In this document: positions 3,886-24,300 of the stretch, piece after piece
Layout: each line of letters starts with the position of its first letter
Position numbering within the stretch: position 1 is the stretch's first letter
Source: a virus
Strand: one strand, 5' to 3'
DNA: 41,628 nt
IMG/VR virus record: IMGVR_UViG_3300019468_000010
The notes under the pieces: generated by a model
What the model saw: the letters and a program-made list of their open reading frames with translations, nothing else
Databases searched by the model: none
What the model was told of the DNA's origin: nothing
Program-made: the position numbers and the translations under genes

Positions 3886-5163
3886 TTATTTACCAGCTTT
3901 CAATTCTTTAACTTCCGCTACTAATTGATTTACCAACTCTTCAAGTTGTTTGATTTTACCTTTATGGTTAGTTTCGTATTCACTACCTTTACCAAGTCTA
4001 AAGGATACACCTGCGTTAATCATTTTGTTGGCCAATGTAGCACCCAAGCTAAACATTACATGCTCAGTTGGTGCATAGAACATACCGAGTGCCACATCAT
4101 TTGCGTTTTTGTAGTGGCCGTAGCCAACTGCAAATGTTAATTTATCATCAGAATTATAGCCTAAATAGTGTAGCGCACTTAGTGCAGCAGTAGATGCACC
4201 AGCTTTTGCTACTTCATGCATCACGTTTGAGATTTGACCTACTGTATTACGTTCTAAATCTGTAATACGTGTTTCGTGGTTATTAATTCTATCCGTATTA
4301 TTCAAAATGGCTTGGCTATTTTGCCCTACACGCTCGTTTGTAGCGGTTAAAGAGTTATTAATCGTTGTAAATCCGTTATCCACCTTAGAGGTCAAATTAG
4401 AGATATTCGTAGTATTTCGTGTAACTCGTTTGTCTAAACAGTTCACATCTTTTTGAAGTTTGGCAATGTGTGTTCCGTTTGTTTCAATTTCGTCATATGC
4501 TGCGAACAACTGACTGCCATTAACTGCATCTAAACTGCTAGGGTCTACACGGCCCGCACTTACATTGTGCAGTTGTCGGTTGTAGTTACTAATTCCACTG
4601 TATGTATCACTTTTCTTACTACCAAAGGATACTACGCTATTAGGACTTTCACCTGCGAACACATGAGTTACCCCATTTAATACAACTTGTCGAACACCTA
4701 CAGGGTTATCCGTTTGACTGTTTGTGCCAATCGCTACGGAATTTTGAACAGGTGCTGATGCATTATTGCCAATGACTACCGCATCAATACCACGCACTAC
4801 ACTATGTGTGCCTACTACCACTGCACCTTGATTGTCTACAGTATTGTTAGCACCTAATACAGTTTGTTCTTTATTGTTGCCTACATAATTGTTGTACCCA
4901 ATTACACTTGCTTGGTCAGCTTCAATTGTTCCATTGCCACCACCGATTACAACGCTATCATTTCCTGTTACTTTATTATCACGGCCAATTGCAATTGTAT
5001 TTGTGCCTGTAACTACTGTATTTGCCCCTACAGCTACAGAATTGTAACCGCTTACTACTGGTGCTTGTGTATTAGGCTCTACTGGCCCTGTTACAACACC
5101 GCTTGCTAATACATTACCGCCAATTGTACCCATAATCATTGTTGCTAATACTAATTTATTCAT
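3886..5163 (-). CDS. Trimeric autotransporter adhesin (YadA/Hag-like, type Vc) with a C-terminal coiled-coil extension
   Basis: Signal peptide MNKLVLATMIMGTIGGNVLASG. Head repeats (NSVAVGANTVVTG, NTIAIGRDNKVTG, NSVAIGTNSQT). Neck motif NRQLHNVSAGRVDPSSLDAVNGSQLFA. N/T-rich coiled stalk. YadA anchor AGASTAALSALHY...FAVGYGHYKNANDVALGMFY...GVSFRLG. Confidence 0.9.
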   Translation of the reverse strand: MNKLVLATMIMGTIGGNVLASGVVTGPVEPNTQAPVVSGYNSVAVGANTVVTGTNTIAIGRDNKVTGNDSVVIGGGNGTIEADQASVIGYNNYVGNNKEQTVLGANNTVDNQGAVVVGTHSVVRGIDAVVIGNNASAPVQNSVAIGTNSQTDNPVGVRQVVLNGVTHVFAGESPNSVVSFGSKKSDTYSGISNYNRQLHNVSAGRVDPSSLDAVNGSQLFAAYDEIETNGTHIAKLQKDVNCLDKRVTRNTTNISNLTSKVDNGFTTINNSLTATNERVGQNSQAILNNTDRINNHETRITDLERNTVGQISNVMHEVAKAGASTAALSALHYLGYNSDDKLTFAVGYGHYKNANDVALGMFYAPTEHVMFSLGATLANKMINAGVSFRLGKGSEYETNHKGKIKQLEELVNQLVAEVKELKAGK

Positions 5164-5227: not shown

Positions 5228-5647
5228 CTATTTTCCTGTACTACCGAACCCATTACTACCTCTTTCTGTTTCATACAATCGGTCTGTTTCTTCAACATCA
5301 GGCAATAATATTGGAATAATTAACAATTGTGCTATACGTTCGCCACGCTTAATCGTGTAATTCTTGCATGATACATTGTCATATACCGCACATATCTCCC
5401 CTGTATAATCGCTATCAATTACCCCCATGCTATTTGCCATGCGTAGCGGTGTCTTATGCATGCTACTACGAGGAACCAATAGCCCAACATGAAAGTCAGG
5501 TATCTGTACCGCTATCCCTAGCGGTATTTTTTTCTGTGTATCTGCTGGTACTGTAATATCGAACGGACAATATAGATCTAAACCAGCACTCCATTTACTA
5601 CCTCGTGTAGGCAACTCAACATATTCATTTAACCTCTTTACTAACAT
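5228..5647 (-). CDS. dut: dUTP diphosphatase (trimeric dUTPase)
   Basis: Canonical motifs AGLDL, VPRSS, GVIDSDYTGE, GERIAQL and RGSNGFGSTG. Confidence 0.95.
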   Translation of the reverse strand: MLVKRLNEYVELPTRGSKWSAGLDLYCPFDITVPADTQKKIPLGIAVQIPDFHVGLLVPRSSMHKTPLRMANSMGVIDSDYTGEICAVYDNVSCKNYTIKRGERIAQLLIIPILLPDVEETDRLYETERGSNGFGSTGK

Positions 5648-5930
5648 TTATCCAATCACCCCATATTTTCGCTCTTGTTACTTGATTGCTTGTTAAGTTC
5701 AATTCTTTCATGATTTGTCTGTTATTAAAACCTTGTTTACACAATGCAATAACATCATCAATCAATTTGAATTCATCTTGTATAGTTCTTTTCTTAGGCA
5801 ATCCACTACCTTTTCCACCTATAACCTTAATTGCCTCATTTGTATCAAGGTTTCCCCATACTACCGATGCTAGTGCTAACCAGTTTTTGCAGTTATACGG
5901 AATTCCATAAACCGATGTATTAACTGCCAT
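5625..5930 (-). CDS. Putative HTH DNA-binding protein
   Basis: GGAGTGAGGA RBS before the ATG at 5930. The C-terminal segment CKQGFNNRQIMKELNLTSNQV looks like an HTH. Confidence 0.45.
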   Translation of the reverse strand: MAVNTSVYGIPYNCKNWLALASVVWGNLDTNEAIKVIGGKGSGLPKKRTIQDEFKLIDDVIALCKQGFNNRQIMKELNLTSNQVTRAKIWGDWINVSKEVK

Positions 5931-6294
5931 GTTCCTCACTCCATTCACTTTCTCTATAGATGCGGAAGAAATCATCAGCACTCATTACTACTAACCAAGG
6001 CTTATTGCTTTTTTTCCATGCTACTATTGGTATATCTCCATTATCTGCTTGAATTGCATCATGTTCAGCCTGTTCATATGCTTTACGCACATTTAGGCTT
6101 TCCACGAATTTCACTTCTTGATGTATGTTAGGTAATCCAATGCAATCCGCTGCATCACCTGTATTACCGCAATATTGTGCAGTTCTACGTACTTTATCAA
6201 AACCATGCAACCTACATACACCTCGCCACATTAATTCCCCTCTAACACCTTTTCGTTTACTATTTACTTTCTTTTTCTTCTTTTCTACTGGCAA
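5920..6294 (-). CDS. PD-(D/E)xK Holliday-junction-resolvase-like nuclease
   Basis: The pattern SKRKGVRGELMW...HGF...R...GDAADCIG...IHQEVKF fits the KG-x-x-E...D...E-x-K layout of Hjc/RecU-like resolvases. Confidence 0.55.
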   Translation of the reverse strand: MPVEKKKKKVNSKRKGVRGELMWRGVCRLHGFDKVRRTAQYCGNTGDAADCIGLPNIHQEVKFVESLNVRKAYEQAEHDAIQADNGDIPIVAWKKSNKPWLVVMSADDFFRIYRESEWSEEHGS

Positions 6295-6300
6295 TATATA

Positions 6301-7078
6301 TCACCTCTCTACGTATTGCTCACATCGTTTTAAAATATTCTGTACTAACATCAACGGAATATGCGACCTTGTGTTGTATCGATTAATACCAGTTGTGTTT
6401 AGCTTGTTAAATTTAATTGTGTTTTTTATATCGTCTTTTAACAACTTCAAATCGATATTGCTACCAAACTTTGTTGGTTTCTTGACTGGGTAATCATAGT
6501 TGTTGTAATAGGTTAGATTTTCATATGAAATATCGAACCCTATTACATTTGCTATGTATTCCCATATCCGCCCATATGCTGGGTTTTCAATCACGAATAC
6601 TTTGGGTTGATAACGCTCAATGATTTTCAACGTGTTATAGATACACATTTCACCATTGATACGTGTTAGAAATGACTTATCATATTTGAATTGGTAGTTT
6701 TCATAATCAATGTGATTTCTAATTGTGAATTTACTTCCTTGTTCGTACCCACCGAATAGGTTTATAGTCATATCCTTTTCTTGTTTCCAGCAAGCATTTC
6801 CACCTTTCATCGCACTTGCTACGCTCCAACTTTCGCATGGTGGACTAGCTAGAATAACATCGGGTCTATCTAGTCCATCTAGTGTTTCCCATAGTGCTTT
6901 GGGATTGTGTAATGTGTTAATCGCTAAATCTTGATTGATACACGCATCACCAATTCCTATTGATGTTATTGTGTGCTGCCCCCCCCGTATTCATGTTGTA
7001 TTCATCTAAACCTTGACGATAACACCCATTGCCATCATCAAATAATCCCCATATGTGCATCTCCCAACCTCTAATCAT
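6301..7078 (-). pseudogene. C5-cytosine DNA-methyltransferase-like gene split by a frameshift at a G8 tract. Either a phase-variable OFF state or a homopolymer miscall.
   Basis: The upstream fragment (7078-6947) carries a motif-I-like GLFDDGNG. The downstream frame carries DVILASPPCESWS (motif IV PC), FVIENP (motif VI) and RSHIPLMLVQNIL (motif X-like). Removing one G joins them into 258 aa with motif I to PC spacing like M.HhaI. Confidence 0.6.
6979..6986. repeat. C8 (G8 on the coding strand) homopolymer at the methyltransferase frameshift point
   Basis: Read directly as gtgtgctgCCCCCCCCgtat. It is the longest G/C run I saw in this AT-rich window. Confidence 0.9.
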
Positions 7079-7283
7079 TTACGCTGCATCCATATTTAGC
7101 TTTACGCATTTTATGTCTAATTTTCTTAGCGTTATTAACTATGTATGTATCGGTATCGTTACGCATCACACTACACTTCATTTCTTCTTCTTTGTGCTTC
7201 TTGTACATTCGATACATAGGGCATCTAACATGACACCCTACTTCTCGGAATGTACACCCCTTACATGGTGCATTCATAATCAA
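7071..7283 (-). CDS. Small Cys-rich (putative zinc-binding) protein
   Basis: CKGC...CHVRC cysteine/histidine cluster followed by a basic tail. Confidence 0.55.
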   Translation of the reverse strand: MIMNAPCKGCTFREVGCHVRCPMYRMYKKHKEEEMKCSVMRNDTDTYIVNNAKKIRHKMRKAKYGCSVND

Positions 7284-7288
7284 TACCC

Positions 7289-7702
7289 CTATTTGTCGAT
7301 GTAATCACTAATGCGGTATTTCTTTGTTTCAAAAACCACCCATGCATTATTTTCAAACCCATATTTCTTCTCCCATGCTCGAAATACTTTTGTTAGTTCT
7401 TCGCTTAGTTCGTCAATATGCTCTTTCTTCGCATCGTTCAAGTAATCGTCCGACAATTCTTTAATTTCATCATCCATGTCATATTCAATTAAATTCCAAA
7501 GTACTCGTTCACTATCAATCTCTGGAACATAACGATAAGGATGTCCAACACGTACCCATTCAATATCACGATTGCGAGCAACATCGCCAAAATAACTGAT
7601 GTATTCTAAATAATCCGCTATTGCATCTTTAATACTATCTTGCGGTTCGCCAGCTTTTCCGTTATCAACCCAGCAATATTTTGTTTTATCTTCAACTAAC
7701 AT
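7289..7702 (-). CDS. Hypothetical acidic protein
   Basis: 137-aa ORF in the operon, rich in D/E. No motif recognised. Confidence 0.6.
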   Translation of the reverse strand: MLVEDKTKYCWVDNGKAGEPQDSIKDAIADYLEYISYFGDVARNRDIEWVRVGHPYRYVPEIDSERVLWNLIEYDMDDEIKELSDDYLNDAKKEHIDELSEELTKVFRAWEKKYGFENNAWVVFETKKYRISDYIDK

Positions 7703-7704
7703 TT

Positions 7705-7881
7705 TTATTCCTCTAATTCTTCAACCTCTACTTCATTAATCCAATCATTCATATCACCATCATCTACATCTTCTGCAAGTTCAATTACATTAGCTTGTTG
7801 TACAGCGACTTCATAACTTTCACACTCTACAATTTTTGAAAACCCAATTTTTACATAGCCAGTAATTTTAAATTCTTTCAT
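7705..7881 (-). CDS. Small highly acidic protein (58 aa, below the ORF-track cutoff)
   Basis: Manual translation gives MKEFKITGYVKIGFSKIVECESYEVAVQQANVIELAEDVDDGDMNDWINEVEVEELEE. Strong AGAGGTG RBS, and the ORF fills the gap between SSB and the next gene. Confidence 0.55.
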   Translation of the reverse strand: MKEFKITGYVKIGFSKIVECESYEVAVQQANVIELAEDVDDGDMNDWINEVEVEELEE

Positions 7882-7892
7882 ATCATCACCTC

Positions 7893-8279
7893 TTAGAACG
7901 GAATATTTTCATTTTGCGGTTGCTCAAAACTGTCAAAGTTACTAGCAGTATCAAAACCGCCATCAAGCTTTCTCCCTACAAAGTCGGCTACCACTTCCGT
8001 AACGTATCGTTTCTGCCCATCTTGCGTATCGTAAGACCGAGTTTGAATACGGCCATTTACAAGCAACCTTTCTCCTTTCTTGCAGTTTCCAACGGCTTCG
8101 CCATTCTTGCCCCATGCTACGCAATTGATAAAAGCAGTTTGTTCTTTTGTTTCGTTGGTTGTAGAGTCAATATAAGTATTCGTAGCAGCTACTGTGAAAG
8201 TCGCTACGGCTCTACCTGTTTTTGTAAAACGTAATTCTGGATCACGTGCTAGATTGCCTAGAATTTGTACACTATTCAT
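7893..8279 (-). CDS. ssb: Single-stranded DNA-binding protein
   Basis: OB-fold N-terminus MNSVQILGNLARDPELRFT..G.AVATFTVA and an acidic C-terminal tip NENIPF. Confidence 0.9.
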   Translation of the reverse strand: MNSVQILGNLARDPELRFTKTGRAVATFTVAATNTYIDSTTNETKEQTAFINCVAWGKNGEAVGNCKKGERLLVNGRIQTRSYDTQDGQKRYVTEVVADFVGRKLDGGFDTASNFDSFEQPQNENIPF

Positions 8280-8458
8280 TAAATTAACTTCCTTTCAATA
8301 TTAATCTTGCCTTTGTATGTTCTTATCATGTCATGCATACACTCAAACTCTTTTGCGTTCGCTTTCATTAACATTGACATTTGCTCTGTTGCTTCCTGCT
8401 CAGTTTCCACATTGAGTGGTATTTCGATTAGGATTGTCATCTTGTGTTTTTTCTTCAT
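8279..8458 (-). CDS. Small hypothetical protein (59 aa, below the ORF-track cutoff)
   Basis: Manual translation gives MKKKHKMTILIEIPLNVETEQEATEQMSMLMKANAKEFECMHDMIRTYKGKINIERKLI. Its stop overlaps the ssb start (TAATG). The RBS is weak. Confidence 0.4.
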   Translation of the reverse strand: MKKKHKMTILIEIPLNVETEQEATEQMSMLMKANAKEFECMHDMIRTYKGKINIERKLI

Positions 8459-8460
8459 TC

Positions 8461-8679
8461 CTAGTACTCACTTATATAATTCGGTTCTACGTTGCACTCA
8501 TCAACACTCACATCGTAGCTAGGGTGAATGTGGCAATCGACTGTTGCCTCATCACGCATGATTTCAAGTAGGTTATCGATTTTCACTCTAGCCTGTTCTT
8601 CGCTAGTCGCTAGCATTGTAAAGCTAACATTGAATGATACATTCACGCTGACTTCAAACGGTTTAATTCGTTCTTTCAT
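8461..8679 (-). CDS. Hypothetical protein
   Basis: 72-aa ORF abutting the upstream gene. Confidence 0.5.
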   Translation of the reverse strand: MKERIKPFEVSVNVSFNVSFTMLATSEEQARVKIDNLLEIMRDEATVDCHIHPSYDVSVDECNVEPNYISEY

Positions 8680-9360
8680 CTATCCACCTATTGCCTGTTT
8701 TAACAACGCTTTACCTTTATCAGATATTTTGCTTTTGTTGATTATTTCTGTTACATCTACTGGTTCTTTTGCCACTTCTACCAAGTTACCTGTACGTGTC
8801 ATTTCAATTTGCTTTTGACCTGCACTTATCAATGATTTTTCATGTTCCGCCTTTTCTCGTGCTTTCAATAATAGGTGATTATCCTTTATTGAATTTGCCA
8901 TACGTTGGCGGTGTTTCTCACGATCCATTAATTGCTCATAGCATTTAATAAACTGTGCCCTGCAACTTGCCTCATTATATTCATGGCCCATTCTAGGGTC
9001 GAACGATGACCATATCGGTTTTGCAGCTTGTAAGGTTATCCCCTCTAAATGCTCCTTTCCATTGTCATAACCATAAGTGCCTGCTACTTTGATTACTTTC
9101 TCCCATGCAGTTTGTGCAGTTTCCACTTCATCATGCATATTCACATATGCACTTAACGCTGTACATTCTTCACGTATCTCTGCAATCGTTGGCAAAAACT
9201 TACATTTATTAATCAAGTTAGCTACCGCTTGTTCCAGCGTTACAGGATTAATATTGCCAAGCATCGTTACGTACAATTTCATACGTTCAACTGACATATC
9301 AGTACTGTACGCTAGCTGTAACATCGATAGTGCTTTCACTATCTGTTGTTGATTGTTCAT
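8680..9360 (-). CDS. Putative helicase loader (G39P-like N-terminal domain)
   Basis: The segment ALSMLQLAYSTDMSVERMKLYVTMLGNINPVTLEQAVANLINKCKFLPTIAEIRE resembles the G39P loader family. It lies directly after the replisome organizer. The start is taken at the ATG at 9360, with an alternative GTG at 9378. Confidence 0.45.
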   Translation of the reverse strand: MNNQQQIVKALSMLQLAYSTDMSVERMKLYVTMLGNINPVTLEQAVANLINKCKFLPTIAEIREECTALSAYVNMHDEVETAQTAWEKVIKVAGTYGYDNGKEHLEGITLQAAKPIWSSFDPRMGHEYNEASCRAQFIKCYEQLMDREKHRQRMANSIKDNHLLLKAREKAEHEKSLISAGQKQIEMTRTGNLVEVAKEPVDVTEIINKSKISDKGKALLKQAIGG

Positions 9361-10120
9361 CTTCACCCCCATATTCACGCATCAATTTATTAACAACATC
9401 TATTGCGTTTTGCTTATTGCTCTTTGCAGGTTTGTTATAGTTATTCTTCTCCCAAGTTCTAACTGCTGCTTTCCAATCTTTCATAGCGTTCTTTCCTACT
9501 TTCCAGCCATTGCTTTCGTAGTAGTCATAGAATTGTTCAGCGTTTACATTATTATTGCGTTCAAGACAATACTGTGTAATTTGAGATAGAGTAGGTTTTT
9601 CAAAACGCTTGCGTTTTGTTGTAGTGCTTTTTGCACTACTATGTATCTCTTTCTCTATCTCTATATCTTTCTCTAACTCTATCTCTATCTCTGGTGGAGA
9701 TTTCTCGGAGATTTGTCGGAGATTTGTCCGGACATTTGTCCTATCTATTTCTATTCGTTGTCTATATTCACGCTTTCTGTCGGCTTCGCTACTTCCTTTA
9801 CCTATGAAATTTTGAATGTCTAGCATATAAATTGCACCATTATCCAACACATCAATAAGTCCTAAATCTTTAAAAACAGATAACGCTTGTTTGATTGTGC
9901 CTACTTGATGTCCTGTTACGCTCGCTAACATATCCGCACTATACGGAATACGTTCGTTTACTACTAACTTTCCGTCATTCTTTAGGCTTCGTAAGTAGAG
10001 TTTTAAAAGAATATTACTGTACAAGTAGCCATCTTTCATGCTTTCTAATATCTTCAACTCATCACTGTCAAAGAAATTATCTTTCAGCCGTAGATAGTAA
10101 TACTTTTTGTTGTCGCTCAT
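9299..10120 (-). CDS. Phage replisome organizer (Phage_rep_org_N plus a DnaD-like C-terminal domain)
   Basis: N-terminus KKYYYLRLKDNFFDSDELKILESMKDGYLYSNILLKLYL. C-terminus LSQITQYCLERNNNVNAEQFYDYYESNGWKVGKNAMKDWKAAVRTWEKN. Confidence 0.8.
   Translation of the reverse strand: MSDNKKYYYLRLKDNFFDSDELKILESMKDGYLYSNILLKLYLRSLKNDGKLVVNERIPYSADMLASVTGHQVGTIKQALSVFKDLGLIDVLDNGAIYMLDIQNFIGKGSSEADRKREYRQRIEIDRTNVRTNLRQISEKSPPEIEIELEKDIEIEKEIHSSAKSTTTKRKRFEKPTLSQITQYCLERNNNVNAEQFYDYYESNGWKVGKNAMKDWKAAVRTWEKNNYNKPAKSNKQNAIDVVNKLMREYGGEDEQSTTDSESTIDVTASVQY
9696..9741. repeat. Four tandem 11-12-bp iterons (GGAGATTTCTC, GGAGATTTGTC, GGAGATTTGTCC, GGACATTTGTCC) inside the replisome organizer gene. Candidate ori.
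   Basis: Read directly. They are preceded by a CTCTATCTCT-type repeat tract at about 9640-9692. Confidence 0.6.
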
Positions 10121-10130
10121 AGGCTAGTCC

Positions 10131-10373
10131 TTATAGATAGCTGGTAGTTTGTTTGATGAGTTTATCAACATCAAAACCATTAATCTTTGTCAAAGTCTTA
10201 CCACATCTAACACTTCTTGTTTTTGCGATTACATCCAGTACATCTTTTAACTCGTTGATTTCTTTTTGATTAACTTTATATTCGCCATTTTCACGTTCTA
10301 GAATTTCAATACGCTTTCTTACATATAGTTCAACTACATCAATTCTCTTCATATCGTTTTGTCCTTTCTTCAA
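10131..10373 (-). CDS. Hypothetical protein. Start may be the ATG at 10352.
   Basis: ORF in the operon with a coiled-coil-like N-terminal half. Confidence 0.55.
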   Translation of the reverse strand: MKKGQNDMKRIDVVELYVRKRIEILERENGEYKVNQKEINELKDVLDVIAKTRSVRCGKTLTKINGFDVDKLIKQTTSYL

Positions 10374-10641
10374 TGATCGCTTCTAGCTTTCTTTTTGTTT
10401 CTTTTGCAAATACTCCATGTGCTAAATTTTCATGGCAATATCTGCACAAACAAGCTAAATTGGTTAATTCACTCGTACCGCCTCTACCTCTAGGCAATAT
10501 GTGATGCACTTCCGTTGCAGGTGCGCCACATATTACGCAACATGGATAGCCATCTATACTGTCTCGTTCGATAGCTTTAGGTCTTGTAATTTTGTAGAGT
10601 TTGTCATCAAGTCTTTTTTTCCTGTTCATTTCCCCACCCAT
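10339..10641 (-). CDS. HNH endonuclease
   Basis: CCVICGAPATEVHHILPRGRGGTSELTNLACLCRYCHENLAHG. Confidence 0.85.
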   Translation of the reverse strand: MGGEMNRKKRLDDKLYKITRPKAIERDSIDGYPCCVICGAPATEVHHILPRGRGGTSELTNLACLCRYCHENLAHGVFAKETKRKLEAIIEERTKRYEEN

Positions 10642-11161
10642 CTATAAGTGATTTGATATATTCGCTTGGCTCTAATGGAATATCTAGTTGATGACATTCA
10701 TCAACCAAACATTCTATTAAGCGTTGCATCTCTTCAACGTTGTATACTGATGACCCTTTGTATAGATGAACCACATATACACCTTGTACTTTTGCACTTG
10801 CTCCCATATCATCTGCGAACCATCCAATACCTTGCTTGCTCCAACTTGCTATTGCATCGTCTTTATCTTGTTCGGTAAAGCCAGCGGTTATGAATATTCC
10901 ACAATCTCTAATAGCTTTTTTGTACACATCTTCTTTTGATGTGTAACCATTTTTACTTAACTCTTTGGCTATTTTTTGGCATAACACCCAACAATATGAG
11001 TTAGCATTTAGGCTACGTTGTTTACTTTTCTTTTTGATTTCAACAACGTATTCTTTGTCAGCAGTAATCTTTGACAAATCATTGTCATGTGGTGCAGGTA
11101 TTACTACCATTACACCTAACGGACTTCTTAATAATTCGATGTTATTTGTTGTCCACTTCAT
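10607..11161 (-). CDS. NinB/Orf-like recombination mediator
   Basis: KQRSLNANSYCWVLCQKIA parallels lambda NinB RSLDQNRKLWACLGDVS. The later segment GSSVYNVEEMQRLIECLVDE parallels STSRMRVGEFAELLELI. Confidence 0.55.
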   Translation of the reverse strand: MKWTTNNIELLRSPLGVMVVIPAPHDNDLSKITADKEYVVEIKKKSKQRSLNANSYCWVLCQKIAKELSKNGYTSKEDVYKKAIRDCGIFITAGFTEQDKDDAIASWSKQGIGWFADDMGASAKVQGVYVVHLYKGSSVYNVEEMQRLIECLVDECHQLDIPLEPSEYIKSLIDGWGNEQEKKT

Positions 11162-11783
11162 AACCTTTTACCCAGTCATAAAGCATAGACATTTGGTCTC
11201 TCGTAATGTTATCGATAACACACATTCCAAACATTTTAGTCGCTTGTTGTGCTACTTGTTCTGCACTCACCCCATGTTCACTTGCCATTTTCAAAACAAT
11301 TCCATATGCATTGTGTGGATCAAATTCTTTTTCTTTCCGTTCTTTTTCTGCTGCTGCATTTATTTTTGTATCTTGCAATCCTCTATATACATCAGCACCT
11401 ACACCAATCATTTTTGCTGCAGTACCTAATGCATCAGTAACAGCCATCTTAAAGGCTTCATCGTTGCCGTGAAAACCATTTTTATCTTTGTAGATTAAGA
11501 AATCTCCACCATATCCAGGAATTGGTTCACTCCATTCATCACCATCTTTGATGTATAGATTTACCAATACATACAACATAGTTTCTTTGGTTTCTTCGAC
11601 TGGTACTTGTTGAGTACTAACAATTTCAAACCTCCAACCAATTCCGCACATACCATATGTTTCGGTTAAAATTTCCCATCGCCATTGAGGAGAAATATCA
11701 TATTTTCCTTTAAGCCTCCCAAAGTCAATTACCTTTAACGCTGATTGCGGTACAGTTTTTACCGCATTATATCTACTATCCAT
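11142..11783 (-). CDS. Single-strand annealing protein (Rad52/Sak-like)
   Basis: NDEAFKMAVTDALGTAAKMIGVGADVY resembles the Rad52-family K-x-A-x-TDA...G-x-G...Y motif. It lies between the DUF1351-like and NinB-like genes. Confidence 0.5.
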   Translation of the reverse strand: MDSRYNAVKTVPQSALKVIDFGRLKGKYDISPQWRWEILTETYGMCGIGWRFEIVSTQQVPVEETKETMLYVLVNLYIKDGDEWSEPIPGYGGDFLIYKDKNGFHGNDEAFKMAVTDALGTAAKMIGVGADVYRGLQDTKINAAAEKERKEKEFDPHNAYGIVLKMASEHGVSAEQVAQQATKMFGMCVIDNITRDQMSMLYDWVKGYEVDNK

Positions 11784-12647
11784 CTATACCTCTTTGTACT
11801 TATAACCACGCATTTCTAAGAAATCAGTCAAATCTTTTACATTATCTTCCGTTAAGTCATAAACAGTTACTGTAAAACCAGTTTTAGTTTCTACAACTTC
11901 GATTGTTTCAACTGTTTCATTTGTGATACTTGCTCGTGCAGCCTCTTCCATTTCATTGCGTTCAGCAAATTTTGCATTGATAAATTCTCTAGCTTGATCT
12001 AGTGGCATATCTTTTACTACAGGCCAGCACTCGTTAAAAGTAATCGGTGTGGCTAATTCGTATTGTTGATTGCAAGTATCAACAACAAATTCAATCATTC
12101 CTTTTTTCTCTGCTAGAATTTGTTGGTAATCGTCATCTGCTTGTTGTCGCTTTGCAATTTCAATCATCATTCCCTCAATAGAGATTTCAATATCTTTCAT
12201 CTTTGCAGTTTTATTCAACCAACGTTTATCACGTTGTAGTTGTTCTGCATATTCTGCACGAACGTTATACTTTTCAACCATCTTTTCAATAAACTTGTTG
12301 ATGGTTTCTGTTTTTGCTTGTACTTCTTTTTCGTCAAAGTATTTAATTTGTTCTGCGAGTGGCTTTTCTGCATCGTAAACAACTTTCAATACTTCATTTA
12401 CTTCTTCCTCAAACAGTTCAATAGGTCTTTTGAGTTCTCGTTTTTTCTCTTTACAGAATTTATCAAGCGTTGTTCTATACTTAACGATTTCATTTTTAGC
12501 ACTTACCATGTCCTTATAGTTTTCTTCTGTTACTACAAGTCCTTTATACTTTTCTAGTTGTGCTTCAAAATATGTTTTGATTTCGTCTTTGTTCCATTTG
12601 AATACTTGTTCGTTTCGACTAACAATCGGTGTTAAATTAATTTCCAT
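11784..12647 (-). CDS. DUF1351-like protein (the usual partner of phage annealing proteins)
   Basis: Size, helical K/E-rich composition and position immediately upstream of the annealing protein. Confidence 0.4.
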   Translation of the reverse strand: MEINLTPIVSRNEQVFKWNKDEIKTYFEAQLEKYKGLVVTEENYKDMVSAKNEIVKYRTTLDKFCKEKKRELKRPIELFEEEVNEVLKVVYDAEKPLAEQIKYFDEKEVQAKTETINKFIEKMVEKYNVRAEYAEQLQRDKRWLNKTAKMKDIEISIEGMMIEIAKRQQADDDYQQILAEKKGMIEFVVDTCNQQYELATPITFNECWPVVKDMPLDQAREFINAKFAERNEMEEAARASITNETVETIEVVETKTGFTVTVYDLTEDNVKDLTDFLEMRGYKYKEV

Positions 12648-12724
12648 TTATTTCTCCTTGTGTTAAAATACAAGTAGAGATATTTCACATACTCTCTACT
12701 CGCACGCTTATGGCTTTGGTCGGT

Positions 12725-12898
12725 CTAGCGTGCTTTTTTTATTTCTCTTACCCAGAAATTGGATAAGATTAACAGCGTTACCCCTAACGCAATTTGTAAA
12801 AACCCTGTATATCCATCTATTTTTTCTAGTTCAACAGAACCCATTGAACCAGATATAAGAATTACGGATATAATTCTTACTAACCAAATAAACTTCAT
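12725..12898 (-). CDS. Small two-TM membrane protein (57 aa, below the ORF-track cutoff)
   Basis: Manual translation gives MKFIWLVRIISVILISGSMGSVELEKIDGYTGFLQIALGVTLLILSNFWVREIKKAR. Its ATG overlaps the upstream stop (TAATG). Confidence 0.45.
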   Translation of the reverse strand: MKFIWLVRIISVILISGSMGSVELEKIDGYTGFLQIALGVTLLILSNFWVREIKKAR

Positions 12899-13194
12899 TA
12901 CAAATCCTTTCCAACTATCACTAGCATTTGGCTGGTGATTTTTTTGATTTCACTTTTCAAACGATTGTTTTCTTTTTCCAATCGTTCCACTTCGTTTTTT
13001 AACTTTCTGTAACCAATAGCCGAGTATTCGCTTTCAACTCCTGCTAGTGCTTCAACCTCTTTTTTACTAAATCTCACACCGCTTACATTCGGTAGTTGTT
13101 TTAGCTTGCCTTTATTTCTTAGGTCGTATACTGCAGTTAGTGAAATTTGAAATAGTTCCGCTACTTGGTTAGCCGTGTATACTAGGCTCTCCAT
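12898..13194 (-). CDS. Excisionase/MerR-type HTH protein with a C-terminal coiled coil
   Basis: YTANQVAELFQISLTAVYDLRNKGKL...VRFSKKEVEAL is HTH_17-like and is followed by a heptad-rich tail. Confidence 0.5.
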   Translation of the reverse strand: MESLVYTANQVAELFQISLTAVYDLRNKGKLKQLPNVSGVRFSKKEVEALAGVESEYSAIGYRKLKNEVERLEKENNRLKSEIKKITSQMLVIVGKDL

Positions 13195-13794: not shown

Positions 13795-13838
13795 ATAAAT
13801 AACAACAAAAATTTTAAAATTATAATGAGGTGAATATA

Positions 13839-14222
13839 ATGAGTGATTTAGGCAATAGAGAGATATTCTCCAAGAATTTACAGTACTATATGAACCTATA
13901 TAACAAAACTAGAATACAAGTTGCAAAAGATATTGGTGTTTCTTACACCACATTTACAAGTTGGATTAAAGGTACTAACTATCCTCGTATAGATAAGATA
14001 GAATTACTTGCTAATTATTTTAGAGTAAATAAAGCTGACTTAATAGAAAATAAATACTCTGAAAACGAACAGTACTATAATGATCCGTCTGTATCGGAAT
14101 ACGCACAAGCAATAAAAGATAATCCTGATTTACGTTTATTATTCGATGCAAGTAAAGATATGTCCAAAGATGATATTAACTTTGTAATTAATACTATAGA
14201 AATGTTAAAGAAAAGAGGTTAA
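13839..14222 (+). CDS. CI/ImmR-like XRE-family repressor
   Basis: FSKNLQYYMNLYNKTRIQVAKDIGVSYTTFTSWIKGTNYPRIDKIELLANYF. GAGGTG RBS 5 nt before the ATG at 13839 (the ORF track starts at a GTG at 13830). Confidence 0.85.
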   Translation: MSDLGNREIFSKNLQYYMNLYNKTRIQVAKDIGVSYTTFTSWIKGTNYPRIDKIELLANYFRVNKADLIENKYSENEQYYNDPSVSEYAQAIKDNPDLRLLFDASKDMSKDDINFVINTIEMLKKRG

Positions 14223-14748: not shown

Positions 14749-15804
14749 ATGCAATTCAATACAACAATTCGGAGAAAGGATAAAGGCTATCAAATTATAG
14801 TTAGCTATAAGGACGGCTATAAGTGGAAACAGAAATCTAAACAGGGTTTCGCAACACAAAGAGATGCTAAACTTTATGGCCAAGAAATAGTAGACAATCT
14901 AAAAAAGACTATCACCAGTCCACTTGATGATAGTCTAAAAGATATAACGCTTATTGAGTTTTACAAGATATATACAGATGAAAACAAAGCAAATGTATAT
15001 TCTACGTTCAAAGCATATGACAATGCATTTCAGAAATTCAACATGCTATTCAATATGAAAGTAAAAGATATTTCTGAAATACAAATTCGGAAAGTAATTA
15101 ATGACTTACAACAATCAATAGCCAGTAAGAATATGTGCATAACGATTATAACAAAGGTATTCGCCTATGCAGTATCACCATATAGGATTATTAATAGTAG
15201 TCCATGTAAGAACATTAAACGACTACATAAAACACAAACAACTAAAATCAACGCTATAAATGAAGATGATGTAACACGCCTGTTAACATCGTTAAAAGGC
15301 CATAACTACAAATACTATATCGTGTGTTCCATTGCTGCTTATACTGGTATGCGGTATGGCGAAATATTAGGCCTTACATGGGATGATATAGATTTAGATA
15401 ACGCTATTATTGATGTGAATAAACAATTCGCTTATAGCGGTGAAAGTACATATATGATCCGCAATCTAAAGACAAAAAACAGTTACAGAAAAATACCTAT
15501 ACCGCCAATACTGATTGATATATTGCTTGAATACAAAAATACCACCAGCGGATTATATCTATTCAACAATCCAACTGGCGGTACTGGTGCAGTATCGGTA
15601 ATGATAAAACGATATTTACCAAATACTTCTATACATGATTTAAGACATACCTATGCTACAAGGTTATTAGCAAATGGTGTTGATATAAAAACAGTAGCAT
15701 CCTTATTAGGTGATACTGTTGATACAGTCATCAACACATACATTCACTATACCGATGAAATGAGATTAAAGGCACATGATAGTGTGTCTAAAATTTTCGG
15801 CTAG
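14749..15804 (+). CDS. int: Tyrosine integrase
   Basis: TGMRYGEILGLTWDDID (catalytic Arg box) and HDLRHTYATRLLANGVDIKTVASLLGD...TYIHY (H-x-x-R ... Y). Confidence 0.95.
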   Translation: MQFNTTIRRKDKGYQIIVSYKDGYKWKQKSKQGFATQRDAKLYGQEIVDNLKKTITSPLDDSLKDITLIEFYKIYTDENKANVYSTFKAYDNAFQKFNMLFNMKVKDISEIQIRKVINDLQQSIASKNMCITIITKVFAYAVSPYRIINSSPCKNIKRLHKTQTTKINAINEDDVTRLLTSLKGHNYKYYIVCSIAAYTGMRYGEILGLTWDDIDLDNAIIDVNKQFAYSGESTYMIRNLKTKNSYRKIPIPPILIDILLEYKNTTSGLYLFNNPTGGTGAVSVMIKRYLPNTSIHDLRHTYATRLLANGVDIKTVASLLGDTVDTVINTYIHYTDEMRLKAHDSVSKIFG

Positions 15805-21308: not shown

Positions 21309-24300
21309 TTAATGTTTATCTTTTTTAGATTTTTTATCTTTCAATCGTCTATCAAACATGATAGCCATAATGACATCTTCTAGTTTTGCATCCGTGTCCG
21401 TTAGTGCAAATTTAGCTAATGTCCATAGTCCATCTGTTACAGTATCACTGAACCCTGTAATTCGGTTAGATACTTGTGATAGGCTTCTACCTACATCCAT
21501 AGCGCCTTTATTAGGCGATACAATTGCATTGCCTACATCATATAGTTTTTCAACGATTGATGCGGCCATTACTGTATTCCCTTTATTGAATACCTTTTCG
21601 CCTAGAATGTATTTCATAGCCATGTTGGAAATATCACGCACAATAGGTATACCCATAGTAGCTTGTGATACCAATTCTTCCCCAAAGGATTTTGCTAAAT
21701 CTTCAGGGCTATCATCATCTCCATTTGTCATAGCCTTGTAAACCATCATGCCTAGCGCTTGTGCGGTCAAAGTCCACCATAGCATGCGCACGAATTGTCC
21801 ATAGTTGCCTTGGTCTTTCCGTGCATAGTTACCCTCAGCAATGATATTGTACAAAGTGTTAGCGTATGAGTAGAATGGTACAAATAGTTGAGTGAGTGCA
21901 TTTCTTGAACGTTGGATGCCTGCACTGTCTTTTGTATCGCCGCTACCGAATATATCTCTTACGGCTCTATCGCCAGCACTAATAGCTTCCTGTTCTACAA
22001 ATTCTGCCGTTACTCCCTCAACACTTTGTAATTCAAGTACTTTCTTATCGTATGCAAATTTCCATATAGGAATAGACAAGGCAAAATCAGTTTCTGTTAA
22101 AAGCCTAAATCCCATTTGGTTAATATCATCACGAATATTAGCCAATTGTTCAGCCTTATAACCACCAATATTTGTATCACCTATGCGTAAGCCTTTACCC
22201 TCAATGGATAACCCTTGTTTCAAGTCCTTATCTAGTGTTTGAACACGTTCCCTCATGAATATGGATTGAGATAACACGAAATCACGTGTTGCGTTGTACT
22301 TGGTTGTACCTACACCATAAAACCCTATACCAGCATCGCTAATTGCTTTGAGCGTATTTCCTACACCGATACGATACATGGCAACAGGAATGTTCAATGC
22401 ATTTTGTAATGCTACGGATACACGGCCAGCCATAACTGCGGTAGAGGTATTTTTCTTGAGTGTCATAACCAATCTACCCCATGCATCAAGTTTTGCAGCT
22501 TCATCTTTCCAGTTATCACGAACCCATGTGCGCAAGAATTGGTAGGTTTCCATACCAAATTTATCAACGATATATTCTTGGAAACGGCTATTGCCTACTA
22601 GCTTATTTACATCCGTTACTGCTTTACGCATGGTAACGTGATTAATAGCCTCTGTAATCGCATTAGGGATAACATCAAAATCAAGCATTAAGGATTTACC
22701 TTTGACTACATCCAAACGTGATTTAGTAGCACCCATACCAGTACCAAAGATTGCATTACTAGCAATCATCGTTTTAGCAATATCCTCTGTTTCAAAGTCA
22801 GATACTTTAGCACTTACTTTAGGATTGTACACAATAGGGAAATATTGGCCTTGAATTTCTCTACCACCAATTGTGAATGTAATACCTTTTTCTTTCTTCA
22901 AAGGATTACCATACAATTCCTCTTGTACCTTGCTACGTTCTTCATAGAATGAATTGATATGTTCCCATGTACGAATAACAAATTCCCAATCCTTATCCGT
23001 CATGTACTCTTGGAACGCTCTCTCCATTTCTACTTCATTACTTTGGATAGTTTCCAATGCACGTTGTCTATTTTTTTCTGTACCCCAATTCAAGGCAAGC
23101 ATGATGATTTGCTCTTTGGTAACGTTGCGTAATTCGCCTACGTTATAGAGATGATCATTGCGAACATCAAAGAGTTGTTTCTTTGAATATACCGCTTTTA
23201 CATCTCTGGCCAATCTATACATAGATTTTTCTTTGTACTCGTTAAATTTCTGAGTAGCTTTATTAATTGGCTCGTAAATATATCTAACTGCAGGGCCATT
23301 CTTTCCACCATCCAACCTGCGCAAGAATGTTTCAGCTTTCAATAATGATAAGTTAAAGTTATTCAATGTGTTAGACAATGCATCTGCACGGCTGCGGTTG
23401 TTTAACTCGTTAAATACATTTCCATTATCTCTACCAAATGTTTCAGCTGCCTTATCAATAATTTGGAATATAGCTTCATCAAATGTAACGTTATTCCCTT
23501 TTTCATCAATTAGCGTACTTCCCTCATATTGAGTTCTACCGCTTTTGTACATACCTGTCATGAGTTCCTCTAACTGTTCGAGTTCGCTCATTTTAAGGGT
23601 ACTAAACGTTCTAGGTGATTTAGCATCGAACATTTCGTATATCCATGGTTCAAGTTGTACAGTCGCTTCTTTATCACCCATGATGTCAGCATCTGCATCG
23701 AGTGCTTTAATCACGGCCATCATGTCAAAACCATTAACAGGTTGTAAGCCATCGTACTTAGTCAATCCCATTTGATATGCCATATGTGTATAGAAATAAC
23801 GCATATTAGGTTCAATCATAATAGGGTTTTGACTACGTGTCATGCGGTTCAATTGGTCTAACAATTTAACACGCAATTTCTTAATGGCCTTTGAATTTTC
23901 AAACGCTACTCTCGCCCTTGCTTGGTTTAGCATTTGAGATTGCTTAGCACGTAATGCTTCATCTACTTTACCAGTAGCCAATGCACTATCTGCTTTCTTA
24001 CCATCTCGTACTGCTTGATTTTGGTATTTCTTGTACTGGCTAGCTTGAGATAATGTCAAATCGCCTAACTCTCTTTTAGCACGTTCCATGTATTTCGGAA
24101 TAGTACCAAATCCACCATCACGGATTGTGCGAACCGCATTAATACGCTCTTGCAACGTATCCATTAACTTTTCAATTCGCTCTTCCTTAGATAATACTTT
24201 ATGGTCCATGCGTTCTTGCATACGCTCTTGCAAGCGTTCTTTTTGCTCTAGCACTTTATCAAGTCTATTCGTGATTGCTGTTAAGCGTTTAGATAATTCG

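Follow-up and report, generated by a model that had tools for sequence, protein, structure and literature searches.

Repeat-driven ON/OFF switching of DNA methyltransferase (MTase) genes is a textbook bacterial strategy. Phase-variable bacterial MTases, phasevarions included, are represented by the Type III mod genes of Haemophilus, Neisseria, Helicobacter, and Moraxella (reviewed in PMC13076061) and by the poly(G)- and poly(GA)-switched Type II/III MTases of Mycoplasma agalactiae (PMC9465063). A simple repeat within the open reading frame (ORF) slips and toggles the frame between ON and OFF, and the repeat length is polymorphic among strains. The window analyzed here is the whole 41,628-nucleotide stretch of IMG/VR virus record IMGVR_UViG_3300019468_000010, a phage genome that carries a compact C5-cytosine-MTase-like gene interrupted by a run of eight guanines (G8). 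The run behaves like the bacterial repeats, and we consider it probable that selection maintains it as a genuine, hypermutable ON/OFF switch, a slipped-strand contingency locus captured here in its OFF state. The setting is different. The bacterial genes are chromosomal host genes, mostly N6-methyladenine (m6A) Type III or Type I systems, that are expressed in growing cells and reprogram host transcription, whereas the window gene, a compact C5-like orphan, belongs to a temperate phage and lies in its early lytic module. An effect on a host regulon would not be expected from its position.

On the phage side, repeat-driven MTase switching has been noted only in passing, for a Bordetella phage methylase, and the recognition of phage contingency loci in general is recent. 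Sorensen et al. reportedly described in 2021 poly-G tracts in the receptor-binding protein genes of Campylobacter Fletchervirus phages. Homopolymer contingency loci are also known in T2 and T4 (bioRxiv 10.1101/2025.10.21.683753). Like the window gene, these are phage-borne hypermutable homopolymers proposed to serve bet-hedging against host variability, but they act on adsorption or other functions in virulent phages, whereas DNA modification in temperate Veillonella phages is at stake here. The poly-G tract of the phage BPP-1 methylase has been reported but never studied, according to the 2025 preprint (bioRxiv 10.1101/2025.10.21.683753). The BPP-1 gene, bpm, is likewise a temperate-phage MTase gene with a G8 run that encodes Gly-Gly. 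It differs in that it encodes a beta-class adenine MTase (DPPY) of an unrelated family, carries the tract in its 3' third, resides in a 65% GC genome, and is known for its tract length from a single genome. The orphan anti-restriction MTases of lactococcal and streptococcal phages and the prophage MTase PamA of Staphylococcus aureus (PMC13076061) resemble the window gene in having no cognate endonuclease and in lying among early or replication genes. In Streptococcus, Enterococcus, and Lactococcus phages, homologues with about 47–50% identity to the window protein carry the annotation "C5 methylase." The orphan enzymes are not known to be repeat-switched, and the Enterococcus homologue (L084) and related proteins of about 50% identity lack the tract segment. 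Our literature search found no report of a phase-variable MTase in a Veillonella phage or prophage, or of a phage clade whose MTase genes are polymorphic for the ON/OFF state at the population level, and a search for phage-encoded phase-variable MTases in general gave no direct parallel. Two further candidate precedents, PMC4004267 and PMC4996451, were irrelevant.

The MTase-like gene lies on the minus strand, and its division by the G8 run, reported in a preliminary description of this DNA, was confirmed. The elements of the locus are as follows.

6301–7060, minus strand: compact C5-cytosine-MTase-like gene, frameshifted (OFF) in the window; 252 amino acids (aa) when the tract is G7.
6979–6986, minus strand: G8 homopolymer (C8 on the plus strand), the proposed switch; when in frame (G7), it encodes Gly26-Gly27.
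6947–7060, minus strand: OFF-state product, a 37-aa N-terminal peptide that contains motif I only and ends at TGA 6947–6949.
6301–6990, minus strand: +1 frame with the rest of the enzyme (PPC, RxNGE, ENP, KxTxF, and RSxIP) and a stop at 6301.
7068–7072, minus strand: AGAGG, read from the sequence as Shine-Dalgarno-like, 7 nucleotides 5' of ATG 7060.

Read without correction, the minus strand holds a 43-aa ORF (6947–7078) and a 169-aa ORF (6301–6810). The FDDGNG region comes first, and the frame is broken later, at ACG GGG GGG GCA. Replacing G8 with G7 or G10 gives a single ORF of 258 aa from ATG 7078 or 252 aa from ATG 7060, and replacement with G9 does not restore the frame. The 43-aa fragment and the 258-aa repaired ORF of the preliminary description therefore both exist when translation is counted from ATG 7078, but the true start is almost certainly ATG 7060, which shortens them to 37 and 252 aa. 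The start is placed there because AGAGG lies 7 nucleotides upstream and because all full-length homologues begin with MHIWGLFDDG or MNIWGLFDDG. The tract is the sole lesion in the window allele, and G8 is the sole G/C run of at least six nucleotides in the window, which is 37% GC. Two other roles for the locus were rejected. The G run is not an internal Shine-Dalgarno element because there is no start codon 5–12 nucleotides downstream. The OFF allele does not encode a functional N-terminally truncated product because the first start codon in the +1 frame, ATG 6810 (M84), lies past motif I and PPC, and both are missing from the 169-aa fragment.

Tract length was compared among related phages. 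A protein-guided IMG/VR scan gave 80 loci whose products have 82–96% amino acid identity, and two DNA-pattern scans, a genome scan, and exact-protein look-ups enlarged the set to 112 distinct complete alleles. A megablast search of the locus against INPHARED phages returned no match, and only protein matches of about 50% identity were found there. Of the 112 alleles, 60 are in frame; 59 of these have G7, and the other has a G8 compensated by an extra TG. In 48 more, the frame is broken, and a change in tract length alone restores full length to each of them (31 G8, 11 G6, 5 G9, and 1 G10). The tract thus accounts for 48 of the 52 inactivated alleles; about 43% of alleles are OFF by the tract and 54% are in frame. 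G7 and G10 read through, and G6, G8, and G9 lead to a stop after 33–38 codons. The tract is the sole frame-breaking indel site in the first 80 aligned alleles. Related copies are found in Veillonella parvula genomes and Veillonella metagenome-assembled genomes, and the isolate V. parvula DFI.7.83 has a prophage copy with G8.

The OFF alleles are unclustered on the tree. Most have an ON allele as their nearest neighbor, and OFF alleles differ from one another by 30–80 substitutions. Fitch parsimony on a neighbor-joining tree of 107 alleles requires at least 40 tract-length changes, compared to 40.8 ± 2.2 in tip shuffles. As far as these alleles tell, tract length is without phylogenetic signal. 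Near-identical contigs differ at the tract and nowhere else in length. L154 (G8) and L041 (G7) align over 3081 bp with 0 mismatches and a single gap, at the tract. L176 (G8) aligns with L132 and L131 (both G9) over 6571 and 6330 bp, again with 0 mismatches and a single gap at the tract. L035 (G7) and L121 (G6) align over 5257 bp with 4 mismatches and a single gap in the same place. At the level of these contig comparisons, the tract is shown to change faster than point substitution. We infer from the lack of phylogenetic signal that the changes are reversible. The preliminary description had read the gene as phase variable by slipped-strand mispairing and had pointed to tract length in homologous prophages as a check. 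That reading is supported at the comparative level by lengths that vary from 6 to 10, by 48 of 112 alleles that are OFF by the tract, by states that are random on the tree, and by same-strain pairs that differ. The ratio of nonsynonymous to synonymous substitution rates (dN/dS), calculated over 198 codons at a mean dS of about 0.59, is 0.043 between OFF alleles, 0.045 between ON alleles, and 0.043 between OFF and ON alleles. Equal ratios in the two states mean that the OFF alleles are not decaying lineages.

The alternative that survives best, although we consider it improbable, is a mutational hotspot without adaptive value. The run would slip and toggle the gene but persist because of its Gly-Gly loop or a local nucleic-acid constraint, and OFF alleles would be mildly deleterious and held in mutation-selection balance. 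An in-frame fraction of just 54% is consistent with weak selection on the enzyme, and the gene is occasionally lost through other lesions, as this explanation would have it. However, a Gly-Gly constraint permits any GGN codon, yet the tract codons are GGG GGG in 69 of 69 distinct alleles, while all 13 of the other conserved glycine codons vary synonymously. GGG is the rarest glycine codon of the phage (11% of Gly codons), and only 3 of 34 fourfold sites are invariant. In the alleles compared, the codon ahead of the run always has G as its third base despite changes in the amino acid it encodes (ATG, ACG, GTG, and GAG), which also speaks against a dipeptide constraint. The run persists down to 58% amino acid identity: homologues with 58–60% identity, on contigs of 33–37% GC, keep it in place as TGG GGG GGG or ATA GGG GGG. 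In the Enterococcus protein and the related homologues of about 50% identity (alignment A1), the six-residue N-x-G-G-Q-H segment is missing. The run itself, and not the Gly-Gly dipeptide alone, appears to be maintained.

Other MTase genes of these phages are built in the same way, which the hotspot explanation does not anticipate. The window has the C5-like gene only. In sister phages, the gene adjoining the C5-like gene is one of two other MTases.

NPPY MTase: L045 3760–4275, tract at 4083; also in L029, L047, L058, L061, L064, and L080.
PF01555 MTase tracts: L033 3899 (G7, ON); L060 4367 (G8, OFF); L186 2363 (G7).

The gene for the NPPY MTase (about 171 aa) directly follows the C5-like gene. 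Its product has the motifs EWYTP and NPPYS and scores 26.5 bits against Pfam Dam, just under the cutoff. The poly-G tract of this gene also encodes Gly-Gly and is ON at G8; G7 (OFF), G8, and G9 (OFF) were seen. The PF01555 beta-class N6/N4 MTase (257 aa, 107.7 bits) has a poly-G tract, again for Gly-Gly, about 100–140 nucleotides into the gene that is ON at G7, and G7 and G8 were seen. In L134, the PF01555 MTase has lost the run and has VDGD for VGGD. The switch states of the C5-like and NPPY genes combine freely, with two loci each for ON/ON, ON/OFF, OFF/ON, and OFF/OFF. As many as two independently switched MTase genes were seen in one genome, and the group as a whole has three MTase families with such tracts. 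The three MTase genes contain almost all G/C runs of at least seven nucleotides in 1.48 Mb of these phages; elsewhere there are only Shine-Dalgarno-like runs and, at the end of an HNH gene, one C7. Outside the group, the G8 run of BPP-1 (L193, NC_005357) at 29922–29929 in bpm (bbp30) is the only G/C run of at least seven nucleotides in that genome. Runs in three unrelated MTase families and in bpm, together with the near absence of long G runs elsewhere, argue against a hotspot that is merely tolerated. The BPP-1 run suggests a design that recurs among phage MTase genes. Ahead of the start of the RusA-like resolvase gene, after the stop codon of a gene for a small membrane protein, lies another run of variable length, G6–G8 (L034 2198, G8; L076 3981 and L079 1683, both G6). 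It occupies a Shine-Dalgarno-like position, and its length could alter translation initiation.

Recoding is a somewhat less probable alternative than the hotspot. A G8 allele would still be expressed, through a +1 slip of tRNA-Gly on G GGG GGG G or through slippage of RNA polymerase, and the OFF state would then be a low level of expression, or the frameshift would be programmed. By reasoning from the sequence, the G run permits perfect re-pairing of tRNA-Gly in the +1 or −1 frame, and the shifted product would be the ON protein. Purifying selection is also equal on OFF and ON alleles. Transcriptional slippage is established for long A/T runs and not for G8. A programmed frameshift is expected to have a lineage-stable architecture, whereas most alleles are in frame and tract length is without phylogenetic signal. 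The out-of-frame arrangement is not conserved; −1, +1, and +2 shifts all occur and are unclustered on the tree. The direction of the shift would also have to differ among G6, G8, and G9. Finally, there is no evident stimulatory element such as a rare or stop codon in the A site, and the next codon is GCA. Leaky expression of OFF alleles by tRNA-Gly slippage is nevertheless mechanistically possible.

We regard it as very improbable that the phage is truly G7 and that the extra G is a sequencing or assembly artefact. Homopolymer length is a classic source of error, and errors would also be expected to produce states that are random on the tree and discordance between possibly re-assembled samples. 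The window's own call was repeated. Over 6510 bp, the window and an independent SPAdes contig (ENA ERZ1757395 NODE_103; 23.6 kb, 38.5x coverage) show 100% identity, G8 included, and the exact 169-aa OFF-state ORF is present on four contigs from JGI, Logan, and ENA, the longest of which matches the window in length (41,628 bp). Reproduction of G8 in ERZ1757395 makes a random consensus error unlikely and weakens the plain assembly error that the preliminary description had named as a way in which its reading could fail. Scans of JGI metagenomes with exact tract-spanning and post-tract patterns found no twin of the window; the twin was reached through the exact-protein look-up. The repaired 252-aa protein is missing from a collection of 15 billion proteins, and no ON twin of the exact strain is known. 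Identical genes from different contigs agree on tract length in 7 of 10 groups, and two of these agree on G8 (L057/L058 and L076/L079). Identical strains thus agree on G8 across assemblies, and conserved A6 runs are invariant in length, which is a weak control for sequencing error. The fraction of non-ON calls, about 43%, far exceeds Illumina consensus error rates, and errors cannot explain why the run is conserved at the nucleotide level.

A plain pseudogene, with the MTase dead and decaying and the tract a mere break point, has equally little to recommend it: the gene is dispensable, four alleles are truly decayed (L102, L122, L137, and L161), and fragments are annotated as hypothetical proteins in databases, but the window allele is intact except for the tract, the tract alone breaks nearly all of the inactivated alleles, and the OFF alleles are unclustered and under the same purifying selection as the ON alleles, so the decayed homologues that the preliminary description had anticipated for a pseudogene are not what the comparison found.

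The gene that these alleles would switch encodes a C5-MTase-like protein. The repaired protein matches PHROG 2882, "DNA methyltransferase," over its full length (E 5e-87), and its motif IV stretch passes Pfam PF00145 weakly, at 27 bits (cutoff 22). The motifs described earlier are all present: FDDGNG, PPC at 73–75, ENP at 158–160, and YDYPVKKPTKF at the position of QxRxR. In an alignment of 57 homologues (A1), F7, D8, and G10 of motif I are invariant and G12 is nearly so. S72-P73-P74-C75-E76 of motif IV, R133-x-N135-G136-E137, E158-N159-P160 of motif VI, and S232-x-I234-P235 near the C terminus are also invariant. The QxRxR position has no Arg, and K194, T196, and F198 are invariant there. The PPC and ENP regions align with motifs IV and VI of M.HaeIII, and a conserved insertion of about 45 residues directly follows PPC. 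A profile search of Protein Data Bank (PDB) sequences was only marginal (M.HaeIII, E 0.026).

The AlphaFold2 model (pLDDT 88.8, pTM 0.87) gives a clearer assignment. All 33 Foldseek matches to the PDB at E ≤ 0.001 are C5 DNA MTases (DNMT3A/B, MET1, M.HhaI, DNMT1, and DNMT5), and the best are the catalytic domains of DNMT3A/B, which have a small target-recognition domain (TRD) (E 3e-5, TM about 0.5). The named BFVD matches are mostly phage and giant-virus cytosine methylases. By its predicted fold, the protein belongs to the C5-MTase fold family, of which it is a compact and remote member. It has the fold of the canonical enzymes (M.HhaI, M.HaeIII, Dcm, DNMT3A/B, and PF00145) and shares with them motif I (the FxxGxG-like FDDGNG), the catalytic PPC, the ENV-like ENP, and a D/xRxxL-like RINGE ahead of motif V. 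Unlike them, it has only 252 aa, the invariant KxTxF in place of QxRxR, the insertion after PPC, and about 30 residues where the TRD would be. These residues (200–228, pLDDT 51–71) are poorly conserved and lie between the motif VIII equivalent and RSxIP. In the model, the Gly-Gly encoded by the tract is in a loop between helix 13–25 and strand 30–35, so the extra glycine of a G10 allele should be tolerated. We infer both the DNA methylation activity and the target of the repaired enzyme from the fold and the motifs. The atypical substrate proposed in the preliminary description finds no support beyond the missing QxRxR and TRD, since the fold matches only DNA C5-MTases.

The top BFVD match, A0A8S5RRQ0, is a 166-aa "uncharacterized protein" that is an OFF-allele fragment. 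Many further clusters of 156–205 aa in public protein collections start past the tract (P0028–P0061; MKGGNACW... and MHKPNALW...) and are named hypothetical or uncharacterized, if they are named at all. These clusters can be interpreted as OFF-state fragments of the MTase gene and not as a separate family; truncation at contig ends is the alternative.

Several points weigh against a selected MTase switch. Ordinary decay is seen in four of the 112 alleles, with a second frameshift near PPC in L102, loss of the start codon in L122, an in-frame deletion that removes PPC in L137, and deletion of the C-terminal third in L161. These copies indicate that the gene is dispensable. The evidence for switching is a comparison between strains, and some contigs counted as "independent," whether discordant or concordant, may come from repeated assembly of the same Human Microbiome Project samples. 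Individual contigs may still contain Illumina errors at their G8 or G9 runs, and an A/T homopolymer control was uninformative because there is no conserved A/T run of at least seven nucleotides in the flanks. The prominence of G8 in an AT-rich genome, which the preliminary description had emphasized, holds in that no other G/C run in the window reaches six, but composition carries little weight by itself: the window's count of G7 matches was equaled in 19 of 100 dinucleotide shuffles. The enzyme assignment has its own weak points. The NCBIfam TIGR00675 dcm score of 20.7 bits is far below the cutoff of 100.65, the family has neither QxRxR nor a TRD, and no characterized member of this compact C5-like family was found. 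The contrast between restriction-modification and Type IV restriction, on which the proposed benefit depends, is general knowledge and not Veillonella data. The conserved run, the tract-only inactivation, and the sister MTases still favor a selected, slipping switch as the probable explanation of the locus.

The surroundings of the gene are those of a temperate phage, as concluded from the presence of a CI-like repressor and an integrase. The window also encodes structural genes and the large terminase.

5228–13194, minus strand: early/replication module that contains the MTase gene (HTH_17, DUF1351, Rad52-like, NinB, replisome organizer, SSB, MTase, RusA-like resolvase, and dUTPase).
12898–13194, minus strand: HTH_17.
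9299–10120, minus strand: replisome organizer.
7893–8279, minus strand: SSB, with the match found on a 100%-identical twin contig.
5920–6294, minus strand: RusA-like resolvase.
5228–5647, minus strand: dUTPase, with the Pfam match on a 100%-identical twin contig.
13830–14222, plus strand: CI-like helix-turn-helix repressor.
14749–15804, plus strand: integrase.

The position of the MTase gene in the early/replication operon, downstream of a CI/Cro-type switch, argues for its expression in the lytic cycle. A 70-aa cysteine-rich ORF (CKGC...C...C; 7071–7283, minus strand) lies directly 5' of the MTase gene, and its stop overlaps ATG 7078; it has no Pfam or PHROGs family match. Just downstream of the early module, a 425-aa YadA-type trimeric autotransporter adhesin with head repeats, stalk, and membrane anchor is encoded at 3886–5163 on the minus strand. 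It is likely a lysogenic-conversion gene, and it fits a diderm, outer-membrane Veillonella host. A single 2820-aa ORF in the tail/structural region (21309–29771, minus strand) has PHROG 9880, of unknown function, as its sole match. One 5.3 kb contig binned as "uncultured Solobacterium sp." (L081, CALEMV010000347.1) has a 91%-identical copy of the MTase gene with G7 and is probably a mis-binned fragment of a Veillonella phage.

In the proposed mechanism, DNA polymerase would slip on the run and add or remove one G, either while the prophage is copied along with the Veillonella chromosome or while the phage itself replicates. A G7 or G10 tract would yield the 252-aa enzyme, and a G6, G8, or G9 tract would end translation within 33–38 codons. 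ON lineages would methylate replicating and packaged phage DNA, as suggested by the location of the gene in the early lytic module, and this DNA would be protected against cognate restriction-modification. OFF lineages would produce unmethylated DNA that may escape methylation-dependent (Type IV) restriction, and/or they would be spared the cost of the enzyme. The phage population would in this way hedge across hosts. This specific anti-restriction, bet-hedging benefit is offered tentatively, with slightly more doubt than confidence. In sister phages, the one or two further poly-G-switched MTase genes would add combinatorial methylation states. A similarly tentative extension is a combinatorial lottery of the "epigenetic coat," in which up to three unrelated orphan MTases slip independently and one lysogen population releases differently methylated virions. 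Such a lottery might hedge between hosts with classical restriction-modification and hosts with methylation-dependent restriction, and it would be a phage counterpart of the phasevarions. Given the run in BPP-1 bpm, the design may be general beyond Veillonella phages.

The comparison shows a human-associated Veillonella phage clade with a conserved poly-G tract in an MTase gene, 43% of alleles OFF, no phylogenetic memory of the state, and sister MTases built alike. OFF alleles are now deposited as "hypothetical proteins" of 166–205 aa. If the enzymes are active, these phage populations would stochastically diversify the modification of their own DNA, which would bear on host range, on the restriction barrier that hampers the genetic manipulation of Veillonella, and on virome annotation.

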